This document shows, one piece after another, positions 4,860-49,976 of a stretch of 64,000 nt of DNA. Within the stretch, counting starts at the first letter, position 1, and every line of letters begins with the position of its first letter. The stretch comes from an uncultured archaeon (GTDB lineage Archaea; Thermoproteota; Nitrososphaeria_A; Caldarchaeales; Wolframiiraptoraceae): NCBI GenBank assembly GCA_937974645.1, contig CALJVH010000013.1:10897-74896 (forward strand). Direction: 5' to 3'. Both the position numbers and the translations under genes were made by a program. The notes under the pieces were generated by a model that saw only the letters and a list, made by a program, of their open reading frames with translations, was not told where the DNA came from and searched no databases.

Positions 4860-5600
4860 GCGTCGTTTCTAGTAGTCCGTGTCCTCTGAGATATTCTTCG
4901 AGCTGCCGTTGTTTTCTCTAGATTGTGAATCCCACGAGCTGATAGAACCTCAGCAGATGTGACACCCTGATATAGAGATAGTAGACGTTCCTCTTCCTCA
5001 TGTATGTCTTCCCCCTCTCCTTGTTAAAGATGGAGGTTCCTTTCTTTCCTTGTAGATGTGGGCCCGTCGCCTCCGATCCCCCAGACCATGTAAGAGTTTC
5101 TGGATGTATTTGAGGAGGCGTCTATCCGAGTTGTAGCATATAATGTCTCCATCGCCTCTATCTGCATATTCCTCGCTGTCGAAGAATCCTCTCAGGAAGC
5201 TCCTCGCACAATCCTCGGAATGCTCCACGAACCGTCTTATCCCATCTATATCGATGGGCTTTCTTAATAGGTCGTAGAGGGCTTTCGACCGAACCCGCAC
5301 CACAAACAATTCCCCCCTCACTGCTGGCCTCGGCGGACTCCTGCCGAGAACTTTCCCAAGCATCTCGCGAATTCCTCTATGAGCTCCCTGTCCTTGGCCC
5401 TTGCGTCGATCACATACTGGCCGCTTCTTATGCTGATTTTACAGGCTGACCCATCCCCTGCTACAACGCCTATGATGTAAGCGAGCTCGGGAGACGGCTT
5501 TAAGAGGAATCCCTGGATGAGTTTGAGGAGTCGATTAGGCAGTCCGCGTGACACCCAAGTAAGAGAGCCGCAGATAACCGAGCCGCTGTAGCCTCATAGA
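4860..5600 (-). pseudogene. Decayed paralog of the LAGLIDADG-family gene at 49996..51078. Frameshifted, with an internal stop and a truncated N-terminus.
   Basis: ORFs 5318..5554 and 4998..5363 plus a downstream frame encoding ...LLRFYQLVGFTI* align colinearly with the intact copy (LAYIIGVVAGDGSACK, FLRGFFDSEEY). Conserved 3' flank next to a tRNA. Confidence 0.6.
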
Positions 5601-5791
5601 TAGATACGCCAGCTTCATGAAATAAGCGGCCATAAATCGATTTATGGCCGCCGAGGACTCAGGTTCAAACAAGCAATCTCATCGATGCGATAGGATGTCA
5701 GGCCGTATATGTGCGCCAGCTACTGGCAATATGAGGCAACTGCTTTATGCAAAAACGGTTATATCGGTGGGTCTGCATAAAAATTAGAGAC

Positions 5792-6334
5792 TTGAAGGCA
5801 TATTCCGTCAGCGTCGTCGGCCGAGTATAGTGCGTGGGCTACAGAAGATACGTCCTCGAGGTTGCCCAAGAGTTGGGTGTAGCCGGCTTCGTGAAGAACG
5901 AGGAGGATGGCTCAGTATCCATATTCGCCCAGGGTGAGGATGAGGCTCTAGAAATGTTCCTTGATAGGGTAAAAAATCCGCCGCCACCAGCTGTGATCAG
6001 AGAGGTGAAGATAGCTCCCTCGGCGCCTAAACGTGGATTAAAAGTATTCAAGATAAGATACGGCCGGCTCGCAGATGAGCTACAGGAGAGCCTCGGCACG
6101 ATGCAAATGATATTCGTATCCTACTGGGATGAATTCAGGGACTTCAGGGGTGAATTCAAAGATTTCAGGAATGAGTTCAGAGATTTTAGGGATTTGTCGA
6201 TTAAGCTGTCTCAAGAGACGCTGGAGGAGGTGAGGGAGTTGCGGCGGGACCTTCGAGCACTCCTCGACGAGAGGCTGGCTAGGCTGGAGAGGGATGTGGC
6301 TGAGATAAAGGCAAGGCTAGGGCTATCTCCCTAG
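5792..6334 (+). CDS. Acylphosphatase-like domain fused to a C-terminal charged repeat/coiled-coil region. Interrupted by an in-frame TAG at 5828-5830, so a possible pseudogene, or translation restarts at GTG 5834.
   Basis: Upstream frame TTG-KAYSVSVVGRV-TAG-CVGYRRYVLEVAQELGVAGFVKNEEDGSV matches the acylphosphatase core V.GrVQGVgFR...GWVrN..DGsV with Q replaced by a stop. C-terminal tandem DEFRDFRGEFKDFRNEFRDFRD repeats. Confidence 0.45.
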
Positions 6335-6686
6335 CGGCAATGTCGAGCCGCGCCTTGATAAGAGCCCCAATCTGAATCCTAGTTGGGAAAGATGTCTGGA
6401 TGGAGCTATAGCTAATGCCCATCCGAGACATATGCCTTATTGAATGACCTCACGTATCGACTAGGTCGGCGAGCCTAGAGCTGACGGGGCACGCATTCTT
6501 CACAAAATCCACAATATTGGCTGTACCGGTCCATCCAGAGGGTTCTTCGAATGCCTGTGGGGATTTAGGGTTCCTGGGAGATTTGTGAAGGAAATTGGGG
6601 CGAGGATCCTATCATCCAAATTCTCGCACAAGTGGTTTTGACGTTTCTTATATGGATCACTGATTATGGTCGCTTTTCTTGAGCTC

Positions 6687-7883
6687 TTAAAAGCGTTGAG
6701 ATACCGCAATCCTCGGAATAGTTATGAAGATGATTATTGCCGCAAGCTCGAAGGCCGTGCACATCGCTATTATCGGGGTTATGAGGCCGAGGTCGTAGAG
6801 CACTGCCGGGATTATCGCGCCGGCGAGGCCCCCGAGGCCGATGCCAAATGAGTATATCCCGTAGGCGAGGCTTCTGCTCTCTGGGGGCGCTATATCCGCG
6901 ACCACCGCCCTCATTATCGTCTCTGTGGCGCCCGCTGTTAGGCCCCAGAAGACCGCCGCGATATAGAGGCCTATTCTCCCAAGTATTAAGAATGCGGCCG
7001 GTGGTATAATTATCGCCGCGAGCGGCGCGATGACCTGCGCTCTGAGGCCGATCTTGTCGTAAAGCAACCCTATCGGGACGGCTACCGCGGCGTCCACCGC
7101 CATCGCGACCAGGTATAAGACCGGTATCTCGACATCCGCTATGAGCCCCCTATTCGCGAGGTCCTTAGCGTAGTATCCTATCACCTGCCAATAGATGAGG
7201 CCCATCATCAGCATGATTGAGCCGGCCAGAAATGCCCAGAATCTTCTCCCGAGCGGCCTTCTCGCGCCCTGCTCTCTTGCCACCACGGCCCTCGGCACGG
7301 GGTACATGATGACCGCGGCCGCCAGCATCGCGAGCGACAGGATCAATGGGATCCACATTATCCAGAATGCCATTCTGTATCCCTCCGGGCTTCCGCGCGC
7401 GGCTATCATCGCTGAGGCTAGAGCCGGCCCGGTCACAGCGCCAATCTGATCCACTAGCTCGTGGAGGCCGAAGCCCTTCCCGCGGCCCATCTTCTCCGTC
7501 ACTTCCGCCAATATCACGTCTCTAGGTGGCCCCCTCAGCCCCTTGCCAAGCCTCTCGAGGAAGAATATTGCCAGCGCGAGCTCCCATCTTCCAGCGAGGG
7601 CTAGAAACGGAATGAGCGCATTCATCCCGTACCCAAGAATTATTGGGGACCAGAACATTTTCCCGGATGTGGATCTATGTGCGGCGATTCCTCCGACGAG
7701 CCTCATCACATTACTTAGGAGCTCGCCAACGTAGAGTATCCCCGCGGCTATAGCCGGCGCCGCCAGCACGTTTAGATATGCTCCCCCGATGGATCTAGCT
7801 CCTTCGTAAACGATGTCGGCGAATAGGGAGAGCAATGAGATCGCTATGAATGCGTTGAACAATTGCCTAGAAGAGAGCCCCAA
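6687..7883 (-). CDS. MFS-type membrane transporter
   Basis: About 12 predicted hydrophobic helices with a central charged loop (GRRFWAFL / PLGRRF), typical of major facilitator superfamily. Confidence 0.65.
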   Translation of the reverse strand: MGLSSRQLFNAFIAISLLSLFADIVYEGARSIGGAYLNVLAAPAIAAGILYVGELLSNVMRLVGGIAAHRSTSGKMFWSPIILGYGMNALIPFLALAGRWELALAIFFLERLGKGLRGPPRDVILAEVTEKMGRGKGFGLHELVDQIGAVTGPALASAMIAARGSPEGYRMAFWIMWIPLILSLAMLAAAVIMYPVPRAVVAREQGARRPLGRRFWAFLAGSIMLMMGLIYWQVIGYYAKDLANRGLIADVEIPVLYLVAMAVDAAVAVPIGLLYDKIGLRAQVIAPLAAIIIPPAAFLILGRIGLYIAAVFWGLTAGATETIMRAVVADIAPPESRSLAYGIYSFGIGLGGLAGAIIPAVLYDLGLITPIIAMCTAFELAAIIIFITIPRIAVSQRF

Positions 7884-13174: not shown

Positions 13175-16100
13175 CTACTTGCTGGCCGCCGGAGCCGTTT
13201 TGATTGTCACGACTTCTTGATAAAGCTCTCCTAGGATCCTCTGGTAATCCGCCTCACCGTTCTCGACCTGATCCATAGCCGCCTCGAGCTTTCTTGTGAG
13301 CTCCTCGGAAACATAATTTCCAAATCTCTCCGTTAGATACTGATATATCATCATGCCCTTCCTAGTCGCTATGAGCCTTCCAGCCCTCTCGATCACATAG
13401 CCGCGCTCAAGAAGTGTCTCGATTATCTTGCTATAGGTACTGGGCCTTCCAATTCCCCGCTCCTTCATCAACGCAACTATATCCCCCTCTGTTAAGAGCC
13501 ATGCCGATGGAACCTTTCTTACCTCCAGGCCGCTCACCTTGTACTCGCCCTCCTCAACCCTATCCACGATCTTAATCGTCGGGTAGAACTCGAGAAACCC
13601 CTTATCCGTGATGCTCACATCTCTGGGCAGCTCGACAACATTACCCAAAATCTCCACGGAGATTCTCTGAGCGATTATCTTTGCTGGCCTACACTGGCTC
13701 GCGACAAATCTTCTGAAGATCAGGTCATACATCCTATAATGGGTCTCGGTGAGCCTCGCCGCCGGCATCGCGATAAGCCCTATCCGGATATAGTATCGAA
13801 GCTTCTCGGCGTCAAGCGGCTTAACGGGTCTAATGCATTCATGAGCTCCTTCAACCCTATAAGCTCTGGCCACGAATAGGCTCGGATCAATCTTGTTTAG
13901 ATACTCCTTGGCTATGTTTATCCCGACCTGCGAGACCGTCGTCGCATCAGTCCTGTGATATGTTATGAGACCTGCTTCAAACAAGTCCTGAGCCACCCTC
14001 ATCGCATTTGCCACAGATAACCTCAGGTACGATGATGCATCCCTTAAGAGCGAGTCCGTGGTGTAGGGCGGCGGTGGGTTGACGTCAACCTCTTCTTCGC
14101 CAATAACCCTAACCATGGCCTTTAATCTCCCGGCCTCCCACTCTCTCAGGATCTCCTCGGCATTTTTCGGCTCGAGTAAATCGATATAGAAGTTCTCGCC
14201 GAGCCTAATTCTGATCAGAGCCTTCTTCCTCCTATATCCATTAGTTCTCTCAACGACCCATCCGAGCACCGGGGTCTGAACTCTTCCTGCTGAGAGCCAC
14301 CTACTTCCGAAGCGTTCCCAGAGCTTTCTGCTAAGCTCAAATCCTATCCACCTGTCCTCAATCCGCCGGAGGAGCTGCGCCTCGACGAGGCTCACATTCA
14401 CGCTCCTCTTGCTCTGAAGGGCTGAGAGAAGGGCTCTCCTCGTAACCTCATGGAACTCAAGCCTATAGACATTAGGGTTAAACGGTTTGATTAGGCACAT
14501 GAGGTCATAAGCTATCTTCTCCCCCTCAGCATCCGGATCCGTCGCCACGTAGACCTCATTATACTGTTGGGAAAGCCTCCTAATGGCCTCAATTATCTCG
14601 ATCTTATCAAACACGTTGTCTGATCCGCATGATGGACATGGTCTCCCATCTGCCCATTGCTCTCCACAGTTATAGCACCGCTTTATGATGCCATATACTG
14701 GAACGAATCTCTCATTTATTCTCTCGACGCCGTGGAGCCCTCTCTCGGAGCCCGTGATTAGATCCGTTATGTGACCCTGGGTGGCCGCTATGCCCACGAT
14801 TACTCCGCCTATTACCGCCTCGTAGACCGTGAGTGGACCAATTCTTCTCCTGAAAGGTCTTCCGAAAAGGTAGGCGATCGTTCTGGCCTTCGTCGGGGAT
14901 TCAACGAGCATCAGAGCGGCTCTAATGAGATCCTTTACTCGGAGCTCGATTTCCCCACGCTGGATCTCGTTGAGAAGCCCGCGCTCCTTATCAACTTGGT
15001 TGAAGATGAGTTCCACCTTCTTCAGATCGTAGGGCTCGAAGTCCAGCTCCTCTATCTGGGCTTTAAGCCTGGATACCAAACCCTTGAAAGCCTTAGCATC
15101 ATCAACGACCACCATGCTCACACCCTTCGTAATCCCATAGGGATAGAGTCTCGAAGTTCGTCCAGAAGCCTGGATATAGCTTGTCGTATCTGGTATGATT
15201 AGCGTGAAACCTTCCTCAGTCTGATTCAATGTTATGTCAAGATCCTTCTCGATCCTCTCAAGGAGCTGTGGAGTTAGAACGCGTTTGACAAAGTCTTTTG
15301 CTGAGGTGATTGCCTCCTGCGCGTAGCCCTCGAATCCGCTGAGCTTCACGCCTTCCTTCGCCGCCTTCTTAATTCTCTCGAGCGCATCTCTGGCTAGAGG
15401 GATAGACTTCCTCAGCTTAGCTATAATGGGCTCAGACTCTCTTCTCGATTTCTCATCCAGTATCGGGATCAGGTTTAGGATGAGTATCAGGAGCTTTGCA
15501 GGATTATACTCCTCCCTCTCAATTTTTATCTCCCTTCTCGGGACTCCAGCGAACACCGCATACCTTATCCTTGATGGAAGGTCTATACCCCGCGTGAAGG
15601 GACTTCTTGACGAGGCTATACCGACCATCGCATCTATTTCGCCGCTCGCGAAGCGCTGGAGAATATCTTGGCTCATCTTCTTGTATAGGTGGACTTTAAG
15701 CCCAGCCCCCTCCATGGCCTCGGCAATCTTCTCGGCATACGATCTTCCCAAGGCATGCGGCGCGAATACCAAGCAACCTCCACCATGCCTTTTCACAAGC
15801 TTAACAACCTCCTCAATAGGGTCTCCGATCACCTCGATGTAAAAATCATCGACGTTTCTCACGAGCTCTTGGAATCTGCCGACCTCGAAGTCTAGGAGCT
15901 CCTCGAAGATCATCATTCGCCTCGTCCGCCTTCCTCTGAGCGTCGCCCCCGCAACCACCAGTATACCTTTCCTCTTCTTCCTCTCCTCTTCAACGACTTT
16001 TAAGAGCCGCTCATATTCTTCGGAAAGCTCCTTCGATGGCGACCTCGCCAACCTGATCCTAGCATCTATCAACTTGAGGACAAGATCCACTGCTTCAGGT

Positions 16101-16804
16101 CTCAGTCCGAGAAGGCCGACGGCCTTATCGATATTCTTCGGAGACTTTAGAAACGAGTCCACATCATCGACGAAGACGTAGTCAAACGGCTCTATGCTCA
16201 TAAGGAGGTCTCCGTGATCGACGAGGAACCTGTCAGTCGTTATCAGGATAGACGCGCCTTCCCCTTCCCTCAGCGTCTCCAGAACCTTCTCCCTCTCGGC
16301 TTTGCTCAGGCCAGCGTGATAGAGCAGAAGCCTCTCGCCAAGCCTAAGCCCAAGCCTCTCGGCGAAGAGGAGGGCCTTATCATACAATTGCTGGGCTAAG
16401 ATGCTGCTGGGAACTATTACGTAACACCGCTTACGCCTCACGACGTGAAGGTACAGCGCCATAATTAGGCCCAGAACGGTCTTGCCGACGCCAGTTGGAG
16501 CGACTATAGCGAAGTTATCTCCCGAGATTATCCTCTTGGCCCAGACCTCTTGAAGAGCCCAAGGCTCGAAGCCTAGAGCTCTCTTAAAGAACTTCCTAAA
16601 CTCTTCATACTCGAGCTGAATCCTTAGGTATTCCTTAAGCATCTGAAGCTTTCCAAACTTCTTTAATGTCTCGGCGGCCTCGATGAGGCCTGCAACCCTC
16701 CCTGGCAGGCACACATCACATACTCCGACTTCGATTAGCCTAGCATCGGTTATCTCTCTGCCGCAATTGCTACACGCGAAGTTGTAGATGCTTCTAATCT
16801 CCAT
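13175..16804 (-). CDS. rgy: Reverse gyrase
   Basis: 1209 aa. N-terminal zinc finger CSNCG...CDVC. SF2 helicase motifs APTGVGKT and DDVD. C-terminal type IA topoisomerase domain with Toprim, active-site Tyr region and a second zinc ribbon CYNCG...CPSCG. Confidence 0.95.
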   Translation of the reverse strand: MEIRSIYNFACSNCGREITDARLIEVGVCDVCLPGRVAGLIEAAETLKKFGKLQMLKEYLRIQLEYEEFRKFFKRALGFEPWALQEVWAKRIISGDNFAIVAPTGVGKTVLGLIMALYLHVVRRKRCYVIVPSSILAQQLYDKALLFAERLGLRLGERLLLYHAGLSKAEREKVLETLREGEGASILITTDRFLVDHGDLLMSIEPFDYVFVDDVDSFLKSPKNIDKAVGLLGLRPEAVDLVLKLIDARIRLARSPSKELSEEYERLLKVVEEERKKRKGILVVAGATLRGRRTRRMMIFEELLDFEVGRFQELVRNVDDFYIEVIGDPIEEVVKLVKRHGGGCLVFAPHALGRSYAEKIAEAMEGAGLKVHLYKKMSQDILQRFASGEIDAMVGIASSRSPFTRGIDLPSRIRYAVFAGVPRREIKIEREEYNPAKLLILILNLIPILDEKSRRESEPIIAKLRKSIPLARDALERIKKAAKEGVKLSGFEGYAQEAITSAKDFVKRVLTPQLLERIEKDLDITLNQTEEGFTLIIPDTTSYIQASGRTSRLYPYGITKGVSMVVVDDAKAFKGLVSRLKAQIEELDFEPYDLKKVELIFNQVDKERGLLNEIQRGEIELRVKDLIRAALMLVESPTKARTIAYLFGRPFRRRIGPLTVYEAVIGGVIVGIAATQGHITDLITGSERGLHGVERINERFVPVYGIIKRCYNCGEQWADGRPCPSCGSDNVFDKIEIIEAIRRLSQQYNEVYVATDPDAEGEKIAYDLMCLIKPFNPNVYRLEFHEVTRRALLSALQSKRSVNVSLVEAQLLRRIEDRWIGFELSRKLWERFGSRWLSAGRVQTPVLGWVVERTNGYRRKKALIRIRLGENFYIDLLEPKNAEEILREWEAGRLKAMVRVIGEEEVDVNPPPPYTTDSLLRDASSYLRLSVANAMRVAQDLFEAGLITYHRTDATTVSQVGINIAKEYLNKIDPSLFVARAYRVEGAHECIRPVKPLDAEKLRYYIRIGLIAMPAARLTETHYRMYDLIFRRFVASQCRPAKIIAQRISVEILGNVVELPRDVSITDKGFLEFYPTIKIVDRVEEGEYKVSGLEVRKVPSAWLLTEGDIVALMKERGIGRPSTYSKIIETLLERGYVIERAGRLIATRKGMMIYQYLTERFGNYVSEELTRKLEAAMDQVENGEADYQRILGELYQEVVTIKTAPAASK

Positions 16805-16952: not shown

Positions 16953-17273
16953 ATGAGGAGCATGCGCCTCTCTGAGGGGGTCTCTGGAGACCATTTCAGG
17001 GTGAGAGTCAAGGTTCTTGGGCCGCTTAAAGAGGTCTTAGGAGAGGATATCTTCGTGATCGAGGCATATGAGGGTGAGAGCCTGCTGGATGCCTTGAAGA
17101 AGCTTCCTAAGCCTCTCCAAGAAAGGATATTTGAGTTTGAGGATGAGGGGGTCGCCCCTGACCTACTCGTGCTGGTTGATGGCGTTGAGATCTCCTGCCT
17201 CGGCAGCCCCGATAAGATACGGCTTAATGGGGTTAAGGAGATACACTTGGTACCGGTAATCCATGGGGGATGA
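16953..17273 (+). CDS. MoaD/ThiS-family beta-grasp protein ending in Gly-Gly (SAMP-like small archaeal modifier or sulfur carrier). Probable start is GTG around 17001 (VRVKVLG).
   Basis: Ends ...VPVIHGG*. MoaD-like VKV..FG.L.E and LVLVDG...S patterns. Confidence 0.6.
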   Translation: MRSMRLSEGVSGDHFRVRVKVLGPLKEVLGEDIFVIEAYEGESLLDALKKLPKPLQERIFEFEDEGVAPDLLVLVDGVEISCLGSPDKIRLNGVKEIHLVPVIHGG

Positions 17274-17848
17274 GTCCCGGCTTGAAGCTTGTGAGCTTCG
17301 GGGATAAGTGGGCCGCAGCATCTGTCCTGAAAAGTCCTAGGAGGAGCTTTCTAGCAAGTCCTGTTGAGGTTCTAGAATCTTTAAGGAGCTCGAGCAAAGG
17401 CGCCATAATTCAGGCATTCAACGCAAGATGCGTGGTATCTGTTAGGCAGATTCACGCGGCCGCTGTTGCGGCCTATCTAGCCTTCAAGGCCGGGACAAAT
17501 ATCTCCAAGAAGATGGAGATCGAGATCCTGCTCAGGCTTGCAGCCGATACTCAGATAGAGAGGGCTCTGGATAAGCTTGGCGTGAGGGGGAATACTGAGG
17601 AGGTGGGCTTCTGCATCCTAGCTGATAATAGGGCTTCGGCGACAAAGATGGCCGAGGAGCTCGCCCGCACTATAGGCGGAGTCGAGGTTGATGATGATTA
17701 TCTCAGGAATGATGAAAGATTATCCAGAGCCGTGGAATTTTACGGAATAGAAGAAGCGGAGGTCAAATCCGTTCAAGCAAGAGATAGAGCCGAGGCGGTT
17801 CTCATCCTTATCTTGGAGAGGATCGCCACCTTAGATCTGAAGAGATGA
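17270..17848 (+). CDS. Hypothetical protein, possibly Cgi121-like. Start overlaps the MoaD-like stop by 4 nt.
   Basis: No strong motif. Size and alpha/beta pattern are loosely compatible with the KEOPS subunit Cgi121. Confidence 0.2.
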   Translation: MSPGLKLVSFGDKWAAASVLKSPRRSFLASPVEVLESLRSSSKGAIIQAFNARCVVSVRQIHAAAVAAYLAFKAGTNISKKMEIEILLRLAADTQIERALDKLGVRGNTEEVGFCILADNRASATKMAEELARTIGGVEVDDDYLRNDERLSRAVEFYGIEEAEVKSVQARDRAEAVLILILERIATLDLKR

Positions 17849-20875: not shown

Positions 20876-21568
20876 TCAGGGCTGAGTATGAGAGCCCGTC
20901 CTATCCTTGATCTTCCTGAGAAACTTGCTCAACGAGCTCGCGAGCTTATCACTCCAATAACCGAACTCGGCTTCGATGGAAACAGAGAGATCTGGTCCCA
21001 CTCCTCCAACAATATATTTCAGCTCCATAGTCTCAATGCCCCTTAATGTGCTCTCCAAAAGCTTCCTTCTCTGAATCCCAATGGAGACGGGGACAACCAT
21101 TACCTCTCCCTTCAAGTTTATCCTGAAGATCTTGAAATTGAGATCCTGAAGTCTTCTCGTCTTCGCATACTTGACAGGATCTATGACCAAGGCCACCGCC
21201 TTAGGGAACAGCCTTTGATACAGCTTCTGGGTCTCGATGTCTATCGCTGAGAGAAATACCTCGAAGCCCGGATGAGAGTGATACCAGCCAACGATATATA
21301 GCCCGGGCCTATTCCTAAGAACCCACTCCGCCGCCGTGGCGATTGTTTCCTCCTCGAGATAAACGAAGCCCGGCGTGGATTTCTGCTCACCCGTTATAGC
21401 ATCCCAAACCTCAAGTATATCACCTCTTTTCAAGTATTTCCCAACAAGGAGGCCCGCGACCTCCTTGTTCAAATCATCTAAAGCATGTTTTATCATCTTC
21501 CCCAGCGCCAGCGGATAGATTCTAGCTCTCATGCAGGAGAAAATGCTATTCAAGATGGATTTTAACAT
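20876..21568 (-). CDS. JAMM/MPN+ metalloprotease, Rpn11/BRCC36-like deubiquitinase
   Basis: Conserved Glu (LEEE) followed by GWYHSHPGFEVFLSAID, which is the H-x-H-x7-S-x2-D JAMM zinc motif. Divergent from the Ub-E2-E1-RING genes. Confidence 0.85.
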   Translation of the reverse strand: MLKSILNSIFSCMRARIYPLALGKMIKHALDDLNKEVAGLLVGKYLKRGDILEVWDAITGEQKSTPGFVYLEEETIATAAEWVLRNRPGLYIVGWYHSHPGFEVFLSAIDIETQKLYQRLFPKAVALVIDPVKYAKTRRLQDLNFKIFRINLKGEVMVVPVSIGIQRRKLLESTLRGIETMELKYIVGGVGPDLSVSIEAEFGYWSDKLASSLSKFLRKIKDRTGSHTQP

Positions 21569-21682
21569 TTAACATTCTGCAAAGGGGGGTAGCATTCACC
21601 TTTCACACAAAACATCAAACTCTAAACCCTACTGGAAAACTCTTGAAGGATGTTCTCCCGACAGGCTCTTCACACAACATAT

Positions 21683-21690
21683 TTATATAT
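21683..21690 (+). promoter_or_regulatory. Putative TATA box (ttatatat) about 43 bp upstream of the Ubl start. A GGGGGT Shine-Dalgarno-like element lies at 21716-21721.
   Basis: AT-rich octamer within the 164-bp divergent intergenic region between the JAMM and Ubl genes. Confidence 0.3.
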
Positions 21691-21732
21691 CGTGTAGTCG
21701 TTATAATTTCAGACAGGGGGTTTGAATGAGCT

Positions 21733-21969
21733 ATGAAAATTAGAATCGTCCCTGCTGTGGGAGGAGGTAATCCTATAGAGCTTGAAGTTTCACCCTCCAC
21801 GACTATCGGAGCTATCAGGGCCAAGGTGTGTGCCATGAAAAAGCTTCCACCCGATACGACGAGACTCACTTATAGAGGCAGAGCTCTCAAAGATACGGAA
21901 ACACTCGAATCGATTGGGGCGCAGGATGGAGATAAGCTTATACTGATAACTAGGACTGTCGGAGGGTAA
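21733..21969 (+). CDS. Ubiquitin-like protein (eukaryote-type ubiquitin homolog) terminating directly in Gly-Gly
   Basis: 78 aa, MKIRIV..IELEVSPSTTIGAIRAKV...PPDTTRLTYRGRALKDTETLESIGAQDGDKLILITRTVGG*. Colinear with ubiquitin ([58 protein letters not shown]). Confidence 0.9.
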   Translation: MKIRIVPAVGGGNPIELEVSPSTTIGAIRAKVCAMKKLPPDTTRLTYRGRALKDTETLESIGAQDGDKLILITRTVGG

Positions 21970-22038
21970 TTCTCGCCGGAGAATCTGTTAAGGGCGCTCA
22001 AAGTTAATTACCTGCCTCCCAAATATGGGAGTAATAGC

Positions 22039-22518
22039 TTGAAAACACAGCTTCCAGAGACCCTGTGGAGTAGGAGACTGGCGCTAGAGTATAAGTTGAT
22101 GCGGGAGAATGAGCCCACCTTCGACATAGTGGACAATCAGTTAACCCATTATCGGGGCGTAATAATCGGAGAGGGGCTTTATGAGGGCGGATTCTTTAAG
22201 ATCGAGATAATAGTTCCGCGAGCATTCCCGTATATGCCGCCTGACATAATTTGGTGGACGAGGATATGGCATCCGAACTTCACGGATGAAGTTCCTGCGA
22301 GGATCTGTGAGTCCATTTTCAAAAATGATTGGAGCCCCTCGCTTCACCTCTTCTCTGTGGTGGAGGCCTTAAGAAATCTCCTCAATAATCCGAACCCGGA
22401 GGATCCGCTGAATACCTTCGCCGCGGCGGAGATGAAGTACAGGCCGGATATCTTCGAGGCCAGGGTCAAGAGCTATATCGAGTTATATGCTAGGCCGGAG
22501 TATGCTTTCCAAGAGTAG
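22039..22518 (+). CDS. E2 ubiquitin-conjugating enzyme (UBC fold)
   Basis: N-terminal RRLALEYKLM. HPN motif with catalytic Cys: IWHPNFTDEVPARICESIFKNDWSPSL. Confidence 0.85.
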   Translation: MKTQLPETLWSRRLALEYKLMRENEPTFDIVDNQLTHYRGVIIGEGLYEGGFFKIEIIVPRAFPYMPPDIIWWTRIWHPNFTDEVPARICESIFKNDWSPSLHLFSVVEALRNLLNNPNPEDPLNTFAAAEMKYRPDIFEARVKSYIELYARPEYAFQE

Positions 22519-22587
22519 GAAGGTGCCAATTGTCCGAGTCTTAAGGTAATGCTCATATAAGCCATTAAGGCGCTTTCCCTTAGCAGG

Positions 22588-23766
22588 ATGATCGAAGAGG
22601 GGCGTAACCTCGAGCGATATGATCGGCAGCTCAGGATTGAGGGGTGGAATCAGGAGAATCTTACCAAAGCTAGGGTTGTGATCGCGGGCGTCGGAGCAAC
22701 AGGTTGTGAAGTCTCTAAAAACCTCGCATTAATGGGTGTTGGAAAACTAGTCCTAGTTGATAATGATGTTGTCGAGTTGTCAAATCTGAGCAGACAGATG
22801 CTCTTTCTAGAAGATGATATAGGTAGGCCGAAGGCCATAGTTGCAGCGGATAGGCTGAAAAAAATGAATCCACTTATAAACATTGAAGCATATTTCGAGG
22901 ATGTTAGAAATCTTGATGTGACGGTCTTTGAGGAGGCGGATGTGCTGATATCGTGTCTTGACAACTGGCCCGTGAGAAGATGGATGAACTCCCTAGCAAT
23001 TGAGCTTAATAAGCCGCTCGTGGATCTAGCGATGGAGGGCTTCTATGCCAATCTTCAAGTCGTAATCCCGAAAAGGACAGCATGCTTGGAATGCCATGGA
23101 GAAGATCTGATACCGCAAGAGGCTCAGCTTGCCGAATGCACTCTGAGAAGAAGAAGGCCGGAAGACCTCGTTCAAGATCTGAAGAATGCGGGCATCGAAA
23201 TAAGCACGAAAGTTGCTGAGAAGCTCTTCGAGCACGATATTAAGACTATCTATGATCTGAAGTATGCTCAAGAGGGAGTGTTGATAAAGCTTGATAAGAA
23301 GACCCTTAAAGTGGTTAAGGAGATAAGGGAGAGGCTGAGGCCGAAGCTCCCCGCACTTCAAAGCGTTGCCGCAATGATCTCAGGACTAGCCTCTACAGAG
23401 ATCGTTAAGATACTTCATAGAGATGATCTCGGAGAACTCGTTAAAGGGCTTTTTGTATATGATGGCCTTGCAGGCCAGTTCACGGTCGTCGAGCTCGAGA
23501 GAAATCCTGAATGCTTCGTTTGTGGAGATTTTGTCGAGGAGGAGTTGACAATTACCATCAAGCCAAGTGAATCGATACTCGAGTTGAAAAAGAGGGTCGC
23601 GGAGATATTCAGAATCCCAGATCCCGAGATACTTTACCGGGAATGGAGACTCCCAGATGATAAGAAGATTTCAGAAACAGGGATCAGGGAGAATGACACA
23701 ATATATATTACTACCAGCAGGAGGTTTATGCCCCTGCAATTAAGAATTCAGATGATTCAGGGGTGA
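22588..23766 (+). CDS. E1-like ubiquitin-activating enzyme (ThiF/MoeB/UBA fold) with C-terminal beta-grasp-like domain
   Basis: RYDRQ start. Nucleotide-binding GVGATGCEVSKNLALMGVGKLVLVDNDVVELSNLSRQ. Zn motif CLECHG. Candidate catalytic Cys in AECTL. C-terminal LTITIKPSESILELKKRVAEIF... resembles a Ub-fold domain. Confidence 0.85.
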   Translation: MIEEGRNLERYDRQLRIEGWNQENLTKARVVIAGVGATGCEVSKNLALMGVGKLVLVDNDVVELSNLSRQMLFLEDDIGRPKAIVAADRLKKMNPLINIEAYFEDVRNLDVTVFEEADVLISCLDNWPVRRWMNSLAIELNKPLVDLAMEGFYANLQVVIPKRTACLECHGEDLIPQEAQLAECTLRRRRPEDLVQDLKNAGIEISTKVAEKLFEHDIKTIYDLKYAQEGVLIKLDKKTLKVVKEIRERLRPKLPALQSVAAMISGLASTEIVKILHRDDLGELVKGLFVYDGLAGQFTVVELERNPECFVCGDFVEEELTITIKPSESILELKKRVAEIFRIPDPEILYREWRLPDDKKISETGIRENDTIYITTSRRFMPLQLRIQMIQG

Positions 23767-23773
23767 TAGCGAT

Positions 23774-24007
23774 TTGAAAAGAATAACAATAGATGAAGAG
23801 GAAAAAGCGGGCGACTGGAATCTTGAGTTCGAGGAGGAGAAAAAGATAGATATATGCCCCGTTTGCTCCGCGGAGATACATGAGGGAATGCCTATTTTCG
23901 AGTGCCCCTTCTGTGGAAACATTATGCATGCGAAATGCGTCCAGCCATGGATAGATGAGCGGGGAACCTGTCCAATATGCAAAAGATCTTTATCACAGAG
24001 GACCTAA
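23774..24007 (+). CDS. Small RING-like zinc finger protein (C4HC3 spacing), candidate E3. TTG start 8 nt after the E1 stop.
   Basis: C-x2-C-x12-C-x2-C-x4-H-x2-C-x10-C-x2-C (ICPVC...ECPFCGNIMHAKCVQPWIDERGTCPICK) with the conserved Trp after ligand 6. Confidence 0.75.
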   Translation: MKRITIDEEEKAGDWNLEFEEEKKIDICPVCSAEIHEGMPIFECPFCGNIMHAKCVQPWIDERGTCPICKRSLSQRT

Positions 24008-24031: not shown

Positions 24032-24385
24032 TTGAACAAAACGAGTGGTGGCGGTATAATCTTAAAGCCTAAATACCTCGAAACTCCCAAGGGCAGGATA
24101 CCGACCTATGATTTTGTAATGGGGCTGGCGAAGGCCATCGATATTCTGGATGAGGTGGTTGCGGAGCTTGAGGATAAGGTGAAGAATTTGGAGCCGGCTG
24201 GCGTACCAGAGCTAAGTGACCTGAAAAATAGGCTGGAAAGCGTCGAAGAAAGCTTGAAAAATTTGGAGAAAAGGTTGGAGCTCGAACTCGAGGATTTCAA
24301 TGATAAGTTGACGACGTTAACGGATGTGATTAATGAGCTCGCAGAAAAAGTTCAGAGGATCGAGGGGAGTATGTCTAGGGGCTGA
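24032..24385 (+). CDS. Hypothetical coiled-coil protein
   Basis: Heptad-rich acidic sequence; no enzymatic motif. Confidence 0.3.
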   Translation: MNKTSGGGIILKPKYLETPKGRIPTYDFVMGLAKAIDILDEVVAELEDKVKNLEPAGVPELSDLKNRLESVEESLKNLEKRLELELEDFNDKLTTLTDVINELAEKVQRIEGSMSRG

Positions 24386-25214
24386 CGACAGCACGCCTCA
24401 TCTCGGCGATCAGTTTCTCAAGATTCACTCGTTTATTCTCGAGTTCTCTTAGCTCGGTTTCAAGTCTTCTCTTCCGCTCTTCTAGCATATTCAGCTCGCT
24501 CCTTAGCTGGAGGACCCGCTTTTCAAGCTCTTCCGCTTCCTCCTCCTTCTCCTTCAGCTTAGATAGCTCCTGCCTTAGCTCGGCTTCCTTCCTGATAAGC
24601 CGCTCCATCCGTATCTCCCTTATCTTGAAATCTCTGAGAAGCCCCTTGAACATATTCTCAAGCCTATTTCCTAGTTCCTCAAGCTCTTTGAAGTAGGTAT
24701 TTTCTAGCTCCGAGATCTTACGCTCCAGCCCGAGCTTTCTTTCCTCAAATTCCCTCAGCTCAGCTTCTCTTAATGCGAGCTCCCTCTCTTTCGCATCGAG
24801 CTCGCTCCCCCATTTCTTTAGTTCCTGCCTGATTACGGAGAGCTCGCTCTTCTCCTTTAACAGTGCCTCAATCTCCTTCTTGATTACCTCGCGCTCCCTG
24901 CTCAGTGTATCAACAATATCTTTTAAGCCTTCTTGAACGGAGAGAAGGGTACTTTCGTAAAACTTGACTTGATTGAGGTCTTCTGAAATCTTTTCAGCCT
25001 TCTCGAGAAATGTCGCCAGCTTGACCCTTGTGCTCTCTGGTTGTGATAATATCGCTCTGAGAAGGGATAGGATCTCCGCAAGCCTAGACTCCATGCTCTT
25101 CAACGCATCATCGAAGGATGCTACCTGCGCGGAGATCTTTTGCTCTAGATTGCTTAACTTTTCATTTATCCTATCCTCCAGCTCCTCGACCTTCTTCCCG
25201 CCAAATGGTGGCAT
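24375..25214 (-). CDS. Long coiled-coil protein (SMC/intermediate-filament-like heptad repeats)
   Basis: 279 aa of nearly continuous E/K/R/L heptads. Confidence 0.4.
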   Translation of the reverse strand: MPPFGGKKVEELEDRINEKLSNLEQKISAQVASFDDALKSMESRLAEILSLLRAILSQPESTRVKLATFLEKAEKISEDLNQVKFYESTLLSVQEGLKDIVDTLSREREVIKKEIEALLKEKSELSVIRQELKKWGSELDAKERELALREAELREFEERKLGLERKISELENTYFKELEELGNRLENMFKGLLRDFKIREIRMERLIRKEAELRQELSKLKEKEEEAEELEKRVLQLRSELNMLEERKRRLETELRELENKRVNLEKLIAEMRRAVVSP

Positions 25215-25315: not shown

Positions 25316-26062
25316 ATGCTGAGCCCTAATGGGAGCTGTGCGAGGTTGCTCACAACAAGAGAGGAAGTAATGTCCAGGTTGTATAAGATCGGGTCAAGCG
25401 CCGCCGCCATGGGAGCAATTCATATTCTCACGCTTCTCTTAAGCTGGTATGTTCAAGTGATCGATGAGACTGAAAGATCTATTCAGGGCCTTGTAAGCCC
25501 TTACGCGACCATGATATCTCTTGTCGGGGGAATTATGGCGGGCATAGGGGTAATCATAATACACTTCGTCAAGAGGCTTAGGCTTATGAAGAACATTTTA
25601 GGAGCCTCGATTATCATGGGCGGCTTTCTTGCAACGGTCTCGCCAATATACTCTTATTGGTTCTGGCTACTAGATTTATCAAGCTACTCGAGATTTGATC
25701 TCGGATTCTTCGTAGCAACCTTCACAGGAGTAATCCTGCTAGCAATAGGAGCGCTGGCATTACTCACACCGGTGAAAGAAGAGGTAATCCCGATGCCTTT
25801 CGCCACTCCACAACCGACCACCCCAGAATTATTTGAGGCTGGTGTGGCCGCTCCAAGCCCAACTAGGCCCGCGACCACCAAGCTCGTCCCAGCGCCGGAT
25901 GTCGAGGAGGCAATATGTAGTATATGCTTTGACTTTATACCAGAGGGAGAGGCAGTGAGGTGTAGTAACTGTGACGCAATATTCCATAAAGGATGCATTG
26001 ATTCTTGGGTAGGCATTAATGGAACATGCCCAAGTTGTAAAGCTGTTGTTATAGAGGGCTAG
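25316..26062 (+). CDS. Membrane protein with four predicted TM helices, a Pro/Thr-rich linker and a C-terminal C4HC3 RING-like zinc finger. Candidate membrane-anchored E3.
   Basis: C-terminus CSICFDFIPEGEAVRCSNCDAIFHKGCIDSWVGINGTCPSCK shows C-x2-C-x11-C-x2-C-x4-H-x2-C-x10-C-x2-C, same spacing as ORF 23774..24007. Hydrophobic segments at about aa 25-50, 62-85, 95-120 and 130-152. Confidence 0.7.
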   Translation: MLSPNGSCARLLTTREEVMSRLYKIGSSAAAMGAIHILTLLLSWYVQVIDETERSIQGLVSPYATMISLVGGIMAGIGVIIIHFVKRLRLMKNILGASIIMGGFLATVSPIYSYWFWLLDLSSYSRFDLGFFVATFTGVILLAIGALALLTPVKEEVIPMPFATPQPTTPELFEAGVAAPSPTRPATTKLVPAPDVEEAICSICFDFIPEGEAVRCSNCDAIFHKGCIDSWVGINGTCPSCKAVVIEG

Positions 26063-28329: not shown

Positions 28330-28884
28330 ATGACTGGGGAAGTTATTAGGGCTGAGCTTGTTCAGGGAAACATAATAGTGTGGGACGTGGAAAAGGGAAG
28401 AAAGCTGTATAGGCTAGGATTTTATGGAAAGCCTCTTGGAGTCTCCAAACCGAAGTCCGCCGAGTTTGACGCGCCCCTAGTGCTAGATATAATCGAGGCG
28501 GTGTATCTTACCGAGGAAGGGTGGCTGGAAGTATACGAGGATGGAAGGAGACTGAGCCTAGAAGAGTTAATCGAGCATGCTGAGAAAATTCACGAGAACT
28601 TCAGGGAGAAGTATCGAGTGTATAGAGATCTTAGGGAGAGAGGCTTTATCGTAACGCCGGGGATAAAATTTGGAAGCGACTTCGCGGTATACCGGATAGG
28701 CCCTGGCCTTGAACATGCACCCTTCATAGTCCAAGTTAAGCTTCTTAGGGATAGCATCTCAGCTTTAGAAGTCGTTAGATCTGGTAGGCTCGCAACAACC
28801 GTTAGGAAATATTTCACTATCGCCGTGGCGGGCCTACCGAGCGGAAAGCCGGCTTACATACTCTTTGAATGGTGGAGGGCTTAA
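28330..28884 (+). CDS. endA: tRNA-splicing endonuclease catalytic subunit
   Basis: YRDLRERGFIVTPGIKFGSDFAVY....HAPFIVQV matches the EndA catalytic core (Y, H, K). Confidence 0.85.
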   Translation: MTGEVIRAELVQGNIIVWDVEKGRKLYRLGFYGKPLGVSKPKSAEFDAPLVLDIIEAVYLTEEGWLEVYEDGRRLSLEELIEHAEKIHENFREKYRVYRDLRERGFIVTPGIKFGSDFAVYRIGPGLEHAPFIVQVKLLRDSISALEVVRSGRLATTVRKYFTIAVAGLPSGKPAYILFEWWRA

Positions 28885-39517: not shown

Positions 39518-39946
39518 ATGAGCGAGAAAGACAAAATCAGGGTGGAGATCGTGATTGGCCCCGCCACAGTGAGAGTTGAGGCTCCACCAGACCAGATAGA
39601 GGAAGCGGTGAGAAATGCTGTCACGGCCCTAAGGTCGGCTCTACCTGAGCTTGGGGCCGAAGTCTCAATGAGCGGATCCGCCATGGCCAAGCCCGTGAAG
39701 CTTAGGAGGAGGCCAACGCCCACGTGCTCCGAGCTTATAAGGGGGCTCATCGAAGAGGGCTGGCTTGATCAGCCTAAAACGTTATCCGAAGTTGTTCAAG
39801 AGCTGGCTAAGAGGGGTTACCATTATGATTCGACGGCCGTGGCGCACAGTCTACTCGATCTCGTGAGGGAGAGGGCGCTCGTGAGGGAAGGTATTCCAAG
39901 GCGTTATACTTACCGAAGGCTGTCATCCATCATTCGAGAAGAATAG
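39518..39946 (+). CDS. Small hypothetical protein, member of a 4-paralog family (N-terminal beta-hairpin plus C-terminal putative winged helix)
   Basis: MSEKDKIRVEIVIGPATVRVEA... and C-terminal LSEVVQELAKRGYHYDSTAVAHSLLDLVRERALV. Confidence 0.3.
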   Translation: MSEKDKIRVEIVIGPATVRVEAPPDQIEEAVRNAVTALRSALPELGAEVSMSGSAMAKPVKLRRRPTPTCSELIRGLIEEGWLDQPKTLSEVVQELAKRGYHYDSTAVAHSLLDLVRERALVREGIPRRYTYRRLSSIIREE

Positions 39947-39976
39947 CGGAGCAACAGTGTTCCCAGCAATCATGAT

Positions 39977-40489
39977 TTATTTCGTTCCACTTGCTGATTC
40001 CTTCCTCGAAAGCTTATCAGCCAGATATTTTATCCCAAGCGGCGTTATTGCGTAATCTCCGCGGTCGAGCCTCTTGAGAAGCTCCGACTGGACTAATTTC
40101 GTGAGGTTATTCATTATCGTCTTCTTCTTCGCCGTTAATGCCGCTTCAAGTTCTCCGGGGCTTATGTTTGGAGCCTCGATCCTCCCAAGCTTATGCTCCA
40201 AGCATTTTCTCAGGGCTAAGAGGAGGATCGCGTCCGAGACCGATTTCAGTTGGCTCAGGCTGAGCTTGAAGAAAAGTCCCTCTTGCGCATCATAGGCGAA
40301 TACGTCGCTAAAGGCTTCCAGTAGATCTTTCAAATCCGTGTTGAACGCGATCTTTCTGGCGAGCGAGTACGCTGGAAGAGCTTTCTCCATGAATGCTATG
40401 ATTTGGCGGTAGACAGCTTCTGGAGGCCCCGAAAAGCTCGTCTCGAGATCGCCGTATTTTATAGTTACCCTAAGCTCCTCTGAGCTCAC
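39977..40489 (-). CDS. Small hypothetical protein, paralog family member
   Basis: MSSEELRVTIKYGDLETSFSG...; overlaps the next gene by 4 nt. Confidence 0.3.
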   Translation of the reverse strand: MSSEELRVTIKYGDLETSFSGPPEAVYRQIIAFMEKALPAYSLARKIAFNTDLKDLLEAFSDVFAYDAQEGLFFKLSLSQLKSVSDAILLLALRKCLEHKLGRIEAPNISPGELEAALTAKKKTIMNNLTKLVQSELLKRLDRGDYAITPLGIKYLADKLSRKESASGTK

Positions 40490-40956
40490 GACCCCTCACC
40501 AAAGAGCTCGCCGATAGAGTTTGACGCGAACGAATATAATCCTTCATCAGTCTTGACTACCAGCCCAGACTTTCTGAGCTCGCTTAATCTTGCTCGAGCT
40601 ACCCGCTCATCAAGGCCTGTGTATGCCGCTATCTCCTTGGGCGCGAGATCCTCCTTGTCGAAGAGGCCCAACCTCCTACCGACATAGGCCGCTGCCAAGC
40701 AGAGGAGGATCCTCCGCTTCGCGTCCATCTCTTTCATGATAATGATCCTACCGTCCCTGAACTCGACGAAGTCCTCAAGCTTCCTAGCCAGCTCGGTCAC
40801 GTCTATCGCGCCGGTGAGCTTTCTAACGATCTCCAAGGCTGGATATGTCTCAGAGAAGAATTTGTTAATACTCCTCCAGACCTCTTCGTGGCCTCCCTCG
40901 AACTCGACCACTGTCTCACCGCATCTAATTACCACCTTAACCTTTTCCGAGCTCAT
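40486..40956 (-). CDS. Small hypothetical protein, paralog family member
   Basis: MSSEKVKVVIRCGETVVEFEG... and C-terminal IAAYTGLDERVARARLSELRKSGLVV. Confidence 0.3.
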   Translation of the reverse strand: MSSEKVKVVIRCGETVVEFEGGHEEVWRSINKFFSETYPALEIVRKLTGAIDVTELARKLEDFVEFRDGRIIIMKEMDAKRRILLCLAAAYVGRRLGLFDKEDLAPKEIAAYTGLDERVARARLSELRKSGLVVKTDEGLYSFASNSIGELFGEGS

Positions 40957-41438
40957 TCGCCGCCACCCCCACTGCCCATGAGACTCTCAACATGTTCTAT
41001 CCCCCTCCTCAGTATCCGGAAGACCTTGCGATCATTCTGCTTCCCGGCGTCCTCCATGTAGCCCTCCCGAATCAGGTGGGACATTACATCCCAGATATTC
41101 TTTGGCATAGGCCATCGAGCCTGAGCATAATATTTCTCGACATCCTCGTATGTCAGATCTCTACCCTCTTGTCTATAGAGGTAGTAGGCTATTGTCAAGA
41201 ATTTCTCCCAGTTCTTCTCGGGATTCACATGGCTCGCGAACTCGACGAAGGAGGAGAAATCACCAACTACGGCCTGCTGCTGGAGCGCCTCAACAGCCGT
41301 ATGCTGCTCAAGGTTTCCAAGCTTCTCAAGGAGCTCGTCGATCCAGCTTAGATCGGCGAATCGGGCTTCAAGAAAATCTCGATCGCCCTCTAGCTCAAGC
41401 TCCAGTCCCCCGATCTTTACCCTTAGCCTGTATGTCAT
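40953..41438 (-). CDS. Small hypothetical protein, paralog family member
   Basis: MTYRLRVKIGGLELELEG...; overlaps the next gene by 4 nt. Confidence 0.3.
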   Translation of the reverse strand: MTYRLRVKIGGLELELEGDRDFLEARFADLSWIDELLEKLGNLEQHTAVEALQQQAVVGDFSSFVEFASHVNPEKNWEKFLTIAYYLYRQEGRDLTYEDVEKYYAQARWPMPKNIWDVMSHLIREGYMEDAGKQNDRKVFRILRRGIEHVESLMGSGGGGE

Positions 41439-49875: not shown

Positions 49876-49976
49876 GCCCCGGTAGCTCAGGCTGGTTAGA
49901 GCGCCGGCTTGGTAACCTTCACAAGAAAGGGCCTAGAGAGCCGGAATGGTCGTGGGTTCAAATCCCACCCGGGGCT
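49876..49976 (+). tRNA. tRNA-Thr(GGU) with 24-nt canonical 37/38 intron
   Basis: GCCCCGG-UA-GCUC-AGGCUGGUUA-GAGC-G-CCGGC-UUGGUA^A-GCCGG, var AAUGGUC, T-arm GUGGG-UUCAAAU-CCCAC, acceptor CCGGGGC, discriminator U. Confidence 0.7.

Follow-up and report, generated by a model that had tools for sequence, protein, structure and literature searches.

A eukaryote-type ubiquitylation gene cluster was found in 2011 in the archaeon Caldiarchaeum subterraneum (Nunoura 2011, PMC3082918). It consists of CSUB_C1473, which encodes the JAMM protein Rpn11l on the opposite strand, followed by C1474 for ubiquitin (Ub), C1475 for a ubiquitin-conjugating enzyme (E2l), C1476 for a ubiquitin-activating enzyme (E1l) and C1477 for a small RING finger protein (srfp). 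The cluster has been reconstituted in vitro as an E1/E2/RING cascade with Rpn11-dependent processing and deconjugation (Hennell James 2017, PMC5654768) and has been partly solved structurally (Fuchs 2018, PMC6043591). Charging of E1 and E2, RING-dependent ubiquitylation of a substrate and cleavage by Rpn11 have been demonstrated with the C. subterraneum (Cs) proteins (PMC5654768, PMC6043591), and a ubiquitin system was present in six of six Aigarchaeota bins surveyed (PMC6053391). Here we analyse a stretch of 64,000 nucleotides (nt) from an uncultured archaeon (contig CALJVH010000013.1, positions 10,897 to 74,896; the whole stretch is called the window below), in which positions 20876-24007 carry a cluster of ubiquitin-system genes.

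In our judgement this interval is very probably the Caldarchaeales (Aigarchaeota) eukaryote-type ubiquitylation system, gene-for-gene orthologous to CSUB_C1473-C1477. The ubiquitin-tagging cluster is real and complete, yet it is no discovery: it is a further instance of a system already described and biochemically rebuilt from Caldiarchaeum. Wolframiiraptor, of which one species has been brought into culture, is a member of the Caldarchaeales, a synonym of Aigarchaeota (PMC9246946, a paper in which ubiquitin is not mentioned). The window comes from a Wolframiiraptor-like member of this order, and hence from the order where the operon was discovered. The novelty implied by a preliminary description of the window, made from the sequence, is not supported: its lineage is the one where the operon was found, and the gene order matches that of the reconstituted CSUB_C1473-1477 (PMC3082918, PMC5654768, PMC6053391).

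The ubiquitin gene cluster of the window

The cluster is made up of five adjacent open reading frames (ORFs), JAMM on the minus strand and Ub-E2-E1-srfp on the plus strand. The features are as follows, with protein lengths in amino acids (aa).

20876..21532 (ORF open to 21568), minus strand: Rpn11-like JAMM/MPN+ metalloprotease, predicted deubiquitylase, divergent from the operon (Pfam JAB, CsRpn11)
21682..21689, plus strand: archaeal TATA-box-like element TTTATATA, 44 nt upstream of the Ub ATG (pattern scan)
21733..21969, plus strand: Ub, 78 aa, mature form (Pfam PF00240, PDB matches, stop after GG)
22039..22518, plus strand: UBC-fold E2, 159 aa, TTG start preceded by GGGAG (Pfam UQ_con, PDB matches)
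22588..23766, plus strand: single-chain E1, 392 aa (ThiF, zinc site, Cys184, C-terminal ubiquitin-fold domain at residues 318-377)
23774..24007, plus strand: srfp, 77 aa, C4HC3, predicted soluble ubiquitin ligase (E3) (Pfam zf-RING_2, regular expression)

All five products exceed the Pfam gathering score, i.e. for JAB, ubiquitin, UQ_con, ThiF plus a C-terminal ubiquitin-family domain, and zf-RING_2. A chance pattern is ruled out because five adjacent genes, co-oriented or divergent, each pass a curated threshold independently. The preliminary description had proposed this profile check and had read the cluster as a divergent JAMM protein with the motif HxHx7Sx2D, a ubiquitin-like protein (Ubl) colinear with eukaryotic ubiquitin and ending in GG, a UBC-fold E2 with an HPN...C signature, a ThiF/UBA-type E1 with adenylation motif, CxxC zinc site and C-terminal beta-grasp-like domain, and a C4HC3 RING-like zinc finger. 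The ORF list of the window reproduces the coordinates of all five, and every one of these functional assignments held up. The present analysis establishes the gene content, the domains, the catalytic and interface residues, the synteny and the fold predictions.

Exact sequences of Ub, E2, E1 and the RING protein were already in the public protein collection, all on one 90,934-bp contig. The 90%-identity clusters of the window Ub and E2 include proteins of Candidatus Wolframiiraptor gerlachensis and W. allenii, and these relatives bear the NCBI labels 'ubiquitin family protein' and 'ubiquitin-conjugating enzyme E2'.

Related loci were collected by an E2 profile search of species-representative genomes, which gave 80 loci, about 67 of them from Caldarchaeales (Wolframiiraptor, Geocrenenecus, Benthortus, Terraquivivens, Caldarchaeum, Pelearchaeum and Calditenuis) and the rest from Asgard lineages. 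The window proteins were compared by BLAST to all ORFs of the recovered loci. Identity to W. gerlachensis is 99% for Ub, 94% for E2, 81% for both E1 and srfp and 78% for JAMM; identity to the locus of a C. subterraneum metagenome-assembled genome is 81% for Ub, 69% for E2, 59% for JAMM, 49% for E1 and 37% for srfp. The arrangement with a divergent JAMM gene followed by Ub-E2-E1-srfp is found throughout the Wolframiiraptor- and Caldarchaeum-type loci. Moreover, the residues defined by mutagenesis of the Cs E2, RING and Ub proteins are either kept or conservatively replaced in the window.

The chromosomal surroundings are conserved to different depths on the two sides. Upstream of the cluster lie the genes for L21e, Rpo4, DUF655, KsgA, L10e and an RNase H. 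The ribosomal/RNA polymerase neighbourhood that the preliminary description had called conserved is thus present, but the L21e/Rpo4/DUF655/KsgA-type linkage is restricted to the Wolframiiraptor/Geocrenenecus/Benthortus group and was not seen in Caldarchaeum loci. Downstream, the linkage to glycyl-tRNA synthetase (GlyRS) reaches as far as Caldarchaeum, and the cluster sits beside GlyRS at a fixed position in Wolframiiraptor-, Terraquivivens- and Caldarchaeum-type loci. The GC content of the cluster (0.47) lies within the range of the window (0.45-0.57), and neither a tRNA nor an integrase was found beside the cluster, in agreement with the earlier statement that it does not sit in an island. 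We also note a reverse gyrase gene 4 kb upstream (13175-16804, minus strand), with helicase and topoisomerase IA domains and the reverse-gyrase zinc finger, which fits a hyperthermophilic host.

The arrangement is not uniform across the order. Calditenuis-type loci (L048-L065) have the order Ub(GG-stop)-E2-E1, in many cases next to a JAMM gene, and within 8 kb of E2 neither a RING ORF nor the coiled-coil genes nor GlyRS turned up; this may be a variant that is E3-less or has its E3 elsewhere. Separately, in three loci from Candidatus Geocrenenecus huangii, G. arthurdayi and a relative (L013, at 5087-7511, L014 and L016) the cluster is broken after E2, and HypC/HypE-like and heterodisulfide-reductase-like genes stand in place of E1-srfp. 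Either E1 and RING have moved elsewhere in these genomes or the system is decaying. G. dongiae (L067), unlike these broken loci, has the full gene set.

Ubiquitin and its C terminus

The Ub protein matches Pfam ubiquitin PF00240 with 51.8 bits (cut-off 25.4, E = 6.7e-14) and has no ThiS or MoaD match, i.e. it does not appear as a MoaD-type sulfur carrier. The alignment with residues 10-76 of eukaryotic ubiquitin is ungapped, with 27 of 67 positions identical (40%), and both proteins finish at the same GG. The PDB matches include four chains named 'Ubiquitin-like protein' (6FJ7, 2MQJ, 6FNN and 5ZEW) at E values of about 1e-40, and 2MQJ is the nuclear magnetic resonance structure of CsUb (Fuchs 2018, PMC6043591). 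T46, K53 and K68 are conserved with Cs Ub, and K4 and K48 are replaced by Arg. The lysines of Cs Ub found to be ubiquitylated in vitro are K4, K53 and K68.

Cs Ub is made as an 87-aa precursor with a nine-residue propeptide, CGEPIRRAA, that is removed by Rpn11 (PMC5654768, PMC6043591). Such a precursor is absent in the window, where the 78-aa product ends in TRTVGG and the stop codon TAA follows directly at 21967-21969. The preliminary description had remarked on this 'already mature' form; the remark is correct for the window, but the form is common, as 39 of the 78 loci with a Ub ORF have GG-stop Ub, including most Wolframiiraptor and all Calditenuis-type loci. Tails of 2-20 residues after the GG occur in Caldarchaeum, Terraquivivens and Geocrenenecus. 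The 91- and 99-aa members of the cluster to which the window Ub belongs differ from it solely in their N-terminal start calls. In view of the even split among the loci, the propeptide is a variable trait rather than a defining one, and GG-stop Ub is a trait of lineages, not a rarity.

Two further sequences bear on the ends of Ub genes. In locus L004 a Ub ORF 99% identical to that of the window has no stop after the GG and runs on for 13 more residues, ILKNSTAFPLSSR, although GG-stop is otherwise the rule in this lineage, which suggests that the tail state flips easily. The second is a 247-aa protein (P0045) encoded on a JGI contig of 3,575 base pairs (bp). It combines the domains ubiquitin PF00240 and UQ_con PF00179 and shares 62% identity with the window E2; either Ub and E2 are naturally fused in it or a stop codon has been lost.

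The conjugation enzymes

The E2 protein scores 100.2 bits against Pfam UQ_con PF00179 (1e-28), and its closest solved relatives are eukaryotic UBC enzymes, from UBE2K (5.4e-23) through UBE2T and UBE2N down to 1e-18, which places it within the UBC fold. The regular-expression search located HPN at residues 78-80 and C90, the single Cys of the protein; HPN, C90, W98 and P100 are invariant in an alignment of 18 homologues. The loop-4 PY and loop-7 PS residues that were mutated in the Cs work are kept, as is the catalytic Cys.

In the E1 protein, ThiF PF00899 is matched with 207.3 bits (2.4e-61) and a ubiquitin-family domain with 27.4 bits (2.9e-6) at residues 318-377. The motif search gave G34-V-G-A-T-G, C166xxC169 and C309xxC312. 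The nearest solved relatives are Uba1, UBA7, UBA3 and UBA6 (1.6e-35 to about 1e-29); ThiF and MoeB come after them (about 5e-27 to 8e-26). The alignment with UBA3 covers residues 26-328, whereas those with ThiF and MoeB end near residue 173. Cys184, in the crossover insertion, aligns with the catalytic Cys of Uba1 (AECTLRR versus IPICTLKN).

The srfp gene follows E1 directly, as in the Cs cluster. Its product scores 38.6 bits against Pfam zf-RING_2 PF13639, and the full series of ligands was found by regular expression: C28-x2-C31-x12-C44-x2-C47-x4-H52-x2-C55-x10-C66-x2-C69. When RING and PHD fingers were compared, the protein proved to be RING-type, with a hydrophobic residue in the first CxxC, a Trp in the central helix and a basic linchpin after the last Cys. 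At the positions mutated in the Cs protein, I30 corresponds to V30, W58 to W59 and R69 to K70. The homologue search for srfp gave only six sequences, so the alignment for the structural model was padded with the paralogous membrane RING proteins described below; the predicted structure matches the RING E3 domains of RNF165, RNF4 and RNF126.

These properties bear on the possibility that the cluster is a sulfur-carrier system of the SAMP/Urm1/MoaD-ThiS kind, in which E1 would be of the MoeB/ThiF/UbaA type and any conjugation would proceed with neither E2 nor E3. Systems of this kind are common in archaea and resemble the present one in their GG-terminated beta-grasp modifier, ThiF-family E1 and removal by JAMM (archaeal SAMP/UbaA/JAMM1 and Urm1). 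The adenylation core of the window E1 scores between 1e-39 and 6e-31 against the NCBIfam ThiF, MoeB and SAMP-E1 models, and a separate GG-terminal Urm1/SAMP-like ORF lies 4.4 kb upstream. However, the ThiF, MoeB, UbaA and SAMP-E1 equivalog scores are all far under their cut-offs (e.g. 135.7 against 275 and 107.8 against 450), the E1 has the Uba1-aligned catalytic Cys and a C-terminal ubiquitin-fold domain but no rhodanese domain, and the modifier belongs to PF00240, not to the MoaD/ThiS family. The window encodes a bona fide UBC E2 and two RING proteins, whereas SAMP/Urm1 systems have neither E2 nor RING; the earlier distinction from SAMP/TtuB-type E1-only systems is upheld on these grounds. 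In C. subterraneum the Ub/Rpn11 and SAMP/JAMM pairs exist without cross-reaction (PMC6043591). We regard the sulfur-carrier reading as very improbable.

The upstream ORF just mentioned (16953-17273, plus strand) encodes 106 aa ending in VPVIHGG-stop, and its stop overlaps the start of the gene for Cgi121, a KEOPS subunit (17270-17848, plus strand). It has weak full-length Urm1-like (3e-7), SAMP1 and archaeal MoaD matches, all below the cut-offs, and is a candidate for a second, prokaryote-type Ubl.

The Rpn11-like JAMM protein

The JAMM protein matches Pfam JAB PF01398 with 64.3 bits (1.1e-17) and the CsRpn11 structures 6FJU and 6FJV at 2.6e-64 and 5.2e-55, compared with about 2e-17 for eukaryotic Rpn11. 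The motif was verified as H97-S-H99 x7 S107 xx D110. The ORF had been given as 20876-21568; however, orthologues including the crystallised CsRpn11 start at the position of Met13 (MRxRIYPL), and the 230-aa form given by the longer ORF, unlike the other four proteins of the cluster, does not occur in the public protein collection. The ORF is therefore probably over-extended by 12 codons, and 20876-21532, with the start at Met13, is the likelier extent.

Where Ub is GG-stop, the JAMM gene adjoins it in 11 of 12 Wolframiiraptor-type loci and in 9 of 17 of the Calditenuis type. That it is kept beside a Ub with nothing to remove points to some function besides maturation; the simplest candidate is the deconjugation demonstrated for CsRpn11 (PMC5654768, PMC6043591), an enzyme that acts alone and outside any proteasome lid (PMC6043591). 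The JAMM protein of this lineage is thus probably a deubiquitylase only.

Ubl, E1, E2 and JAB functions also occur together in bacterial antiviral defence modules such as Bil and type II CBASS (Cap2 E1-E2 and Cap3 JAB), and PADLOC does report an 'E1-E2' match for E1 (3e-22) and a 'JAB' match for JAMM (3.5e-9), next to a weak NCBIfam cap2_3 match. The E1 match is nevertheless confined to the adenylation core (residues 16-143, 77 bits versus 207 for ThiF), the JAB match amounts to 34 bits versus 220 bits to CsRpn11, and PADLOC has no match for Ub, E2 or either RING protein. The cluster occupies a fixed chromosomal site by GlyRS, among ribosomal protein and RNA polymerase genes, and the locus showed no cyclase, effector, integrase or flanking tRNA. 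We thus give scarcely any credence to a defence module. Eukaryotic contamination or recent horizontal transfer from a eukaryote, to which the eukaryotic best non-archaeal matches of Ub, E2, E1 and JAMM might point, is the least credible explanation of all, as the genes lack introns, are compact and arranged like an operon, have TTG starts and Shine-Dalgarno (SD)-like elements, lie between archaeal flanks (L21e, Rpo4, DUF655, KsgA) in a window that holds reverse gyrase, have a GC content within the window range, and recur as orthologous clusters in the Caldarchaeales loci.

Expression and proposed mode of action

The divergent spacer between JAMM (Met13) and Ub is 200 nt long, has 39% GC and holds TTTATATA, which is probably the operon promoter. 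SD-like elements precede the starts of Ub (GGGGG, 12 nt before the ATG), E2 and cc117, the gene that follows srfp. The spacers measure 69 nt (Ub-E2), 69 nt (E2-E1), 7 nt (E1-srfp) and 24 nt (srfp-cc117); the gaps of 70, 70 and 8 bp reported previously are coordinate differences. No consensus TATA match was found by the pattern scan in the two 69-nt spacers. These features would fit a single transcript from Ub to srfp or cc117.

We propose that the eukaryote-type system of the window would work as follows. One promoter upstream of Ub would drive Ub-E2-E1-srfp and probably also cc117. Ub would be made as a 78-aa protein with a free GG terminus, so that no maturation step would be needed. The single-chain E1 would adenylate Gly78, form a thioester on Cys184 and recruit E2 via its C-terminal ubiquitin-fold domain, and Ub would then be handed from E1 to Cys90 of E2. 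The soluble srfp would bind the loop-4 'PY' and loop-7 surfaces of E2 and activate E2~Ub for transfer to substrate lysines, and the paralogous membrane RING protein would probably do likewise at the membrane. K53 and K68 of Ub would be available for chains. JAMM would strip Ub from conjugates, and deconjugation is the only role expected for it here, given the lack of a propeptide. The chemistry is probably the same in this organism as that of the C. subterraneum orthologues.

Several points weigh against this reading. The biochemistry was done with C. subterraneum proteins only, and the assays used a heterologous Rad50 in place of a natural substrate (PMC5654768). The window srfp is 37% identical to its Cs counterpart, its first loop is one residue longer (x12 versus x11), and the E2-contact Ile and the linchpin Arg are changed to Val and Lys, conservative as these changes appear. 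One of the three Cs chain sites, K4 of Ub, is Arg in the window. Transcription as one operon is a prediction from gene spacing and sequence motifs, and the 69-nt spacers could house internal promoters; there is a weak CATATAAG before the E1 gene.

Genes downstream of srfp

The preliminary description ended the cluster at srfp. Its five genes are correct, but the conserved block runs on for another ~2 kb to a second, membrane-anchored RING protein, and the synteny reaches Caldarchaeum. Three genes are involved.

24032..24385, plus strand: cc117, 117-aa coiled-coil protein, 24 nt past srfp, with an SD-like GGAGG 11 nt upstream
24375..25214, minus strand: cc279, 279-aa coiled-coil protein, convergent with cc117 (11-nt overlap) and divergent from TM-RING
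25316..26062, plus strand: TM-RING, 248 aa, with four transmembrane (TM) helices, a Pro-rich linker and a C-terminal RING, 1.3 kb past srfp

Of these, cc117 is probably the fifth gene of the operon. Against Pfam, NCBIfam and PADLOC the two coiled-coil proteins gave at most generic coiled-coil similarity, that of cc279 being of the SMC/Rad50 type and far under the cut-offs. The cc279 protein is 33% identical to its Caldarchaeum orthologue, and the C-terminal ITEMRRA motif is kept.

TM-RING matches Pfam zf-RING_2 at 8.6e-10, and its C4HC3 ligands are spaced exactly as published for Cs srfp. Between srfp and TM-RING neither the eight zinc ligands nor the Trp vary, which makes the two proteins paralogues. 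There are four hydrophobic segments with positive-inside charges, and the loop charges place both termini in the cytoplasm. The AlphaFold2 model has four long helices, a disordered linker and a RING domain with pLDDT 80-92. A Foldseek search of the PDB with this model gave the RING domains of RNF165, RNF12 and RNF38, i.e. E2-binding RING-H2 domains, as best but weak matches (best E 0.011). The claudin/TARP-like matches of the membrane part were weak and not significant (E >= 0.04). The architecture is like that of the eukaryotic PA-TM-RING protein RNF13 and of Hrd1/synoviolin, but no sequence or fold relationship is detectable in the membrane part. The public label is 'hypothetical protein', and the publicly annotated form has 238 aa.

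Synteny of cc117 holds in 14 of 16 Wolframiiraptor-type loci, and among the Caldarchaeum-type loci the gene was detected in 6 of 17. Among loci with enough DNA, cc279 and TM-RING are each syntenic in 14 of 16 Wolframiiraptor-type and 17 of 17 Caldarchaeum-type loci, and TM-RING is also found in Terraquivivens-type loci. In Calditenuis-type loci no accessory genes were found (0 of 16). A motif scan of Wolframiiraptor- and Caldarchaeum-type loci, again those with enough DNA, found one small RING ORF and one RING ORF with about four TM segments at fixed distances from E2 in nearly every locus, the exceptions being the broken Geocrenenecus loci.

Next to the Cs operon, 'a second E3 protein' is noted by Fuchs 2018 with no further description (PMC6043591), and neither experimental paper uses 'membrane' or 'coiled' for neighbouring genes (PMC5654768, PMC6043591). 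A limited literature search found no paper on archaeal membrane RING ligases, which does not exclude that one exists. TM-RING is a candidate second E3, and it is the one part of the cluster that may go beyond the published description. We tentatively suggest, with less than even confidence, that in archaea of the Wolframiiraptor, Terraquivivens and Caldarchaeum types the ubiquitylation module comprises more than the five genes described so far. It would add TM-RING and two coiled-coil proteins, would have a soluble and a membrane-tethered E3 arm served by one E1 and one E2, and would use JAMM as a dedicated deubiquitylase where Ub is mature. If this is true, membrane-embedded RING ligases would have a prokaryotic precedent in the membrane arm, and the coiled-coil proteins could be adaptors or substrates.

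Comparison with other ubiquitin systems

The Cs cluster shares with the window its five genes, their order, the divergent JAMM, the mutationally defined residues and the C4HC3 ligand pattern, as well as the downstream cc279, TM-RING and GlyRS, the latter part being consistent with the 'second E3' of Fuchs 2018 (PMC6043591). The differences are the 78-aa GG-stop Ub instead of an 87-aa precursor, the Arg residues at K4 and K48, the longer first loop and the two replacements (I30 to V, R69 to K) in srfp, and, with respect to Caldarchaeum loci, the upstream neighbours L21e, Rpo4, DUF655 and KsgA.

Asgard clusters (Jord-, Frey-, Hel- and Sif-archaeal, L068-L080) have homologous Ub, E2, E1 and RING proteins, with 44-49% identity for E2 and 36-44% for Ub, and some of them share GG-stop Ub with the window. 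They differ in having the order srfp-Ub-E2-E1 or an inverted E1, in lacking cc117/cc279 and the GlyRS linkage, and in that an adjacent JAMM was detected in L077 only.

The eukaryotic cascade has in common with the window the ubiquitin fold and GG, the HPN-Cys E2, the catalytic Cys and ubiquitin-fold domain of E1, and the RING fold, and the window JAMM is closest to Rpn11 and CSN5. In contrast to eukaryotes, the genes are clustered in an operon and Ub is neither a poly-Ub nor a ribosomal-protein fusion. The 392-aa E1 is a single adenylation unit that has neither the pseudo-dimeric second half nor the large FCCH/SCCH domains. CsRpn11, a close relative of the window JAMM, likewise differs from the lid Rpn11 of eukaryotes in working outside the proteasome lid.

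Of the archaeal E1/E2/RING/Rpn11 systems only one has been reconstituted, and the cassette represents a second copy of it at moderate divergence (37-81% identity). With a Wolframiiraptor species in culture (PMC9246946), in vivo questions such as natural substrates and diGly proteomics could be opened, which is impossible for the uncultured C. subterraneum. The new comparative points are that the propeptide is dispensable in half of the sampled lineages while JAMM is kept, that TM-RING and the coiled-coil genes are conserved, and that no RING gene was found within 8 kb of E2 in Calditenuis-type clusters. These points refine work on the origin of ubiquitin signalling and leave the established picture unchanged.

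Other features of the window

At 49876-49976 (plus strand) an Rfam tRNA match spans 101 nt for a 71-position model and is not reported by ARAGORN, so this tRNA may contain an intron. A tRNA-splicing endonuclease gene is present at 28330-28884 (plus strand). Finally, a row of four small ORFs at 39518-41438 (142, 170, 156 and 161 aa) resembles a local family of paralogues: the N-termini are alike (KVKVVIRCGE, LRVTIKYGD, LRVKIGGLELE), and Pfam gave no significant match.

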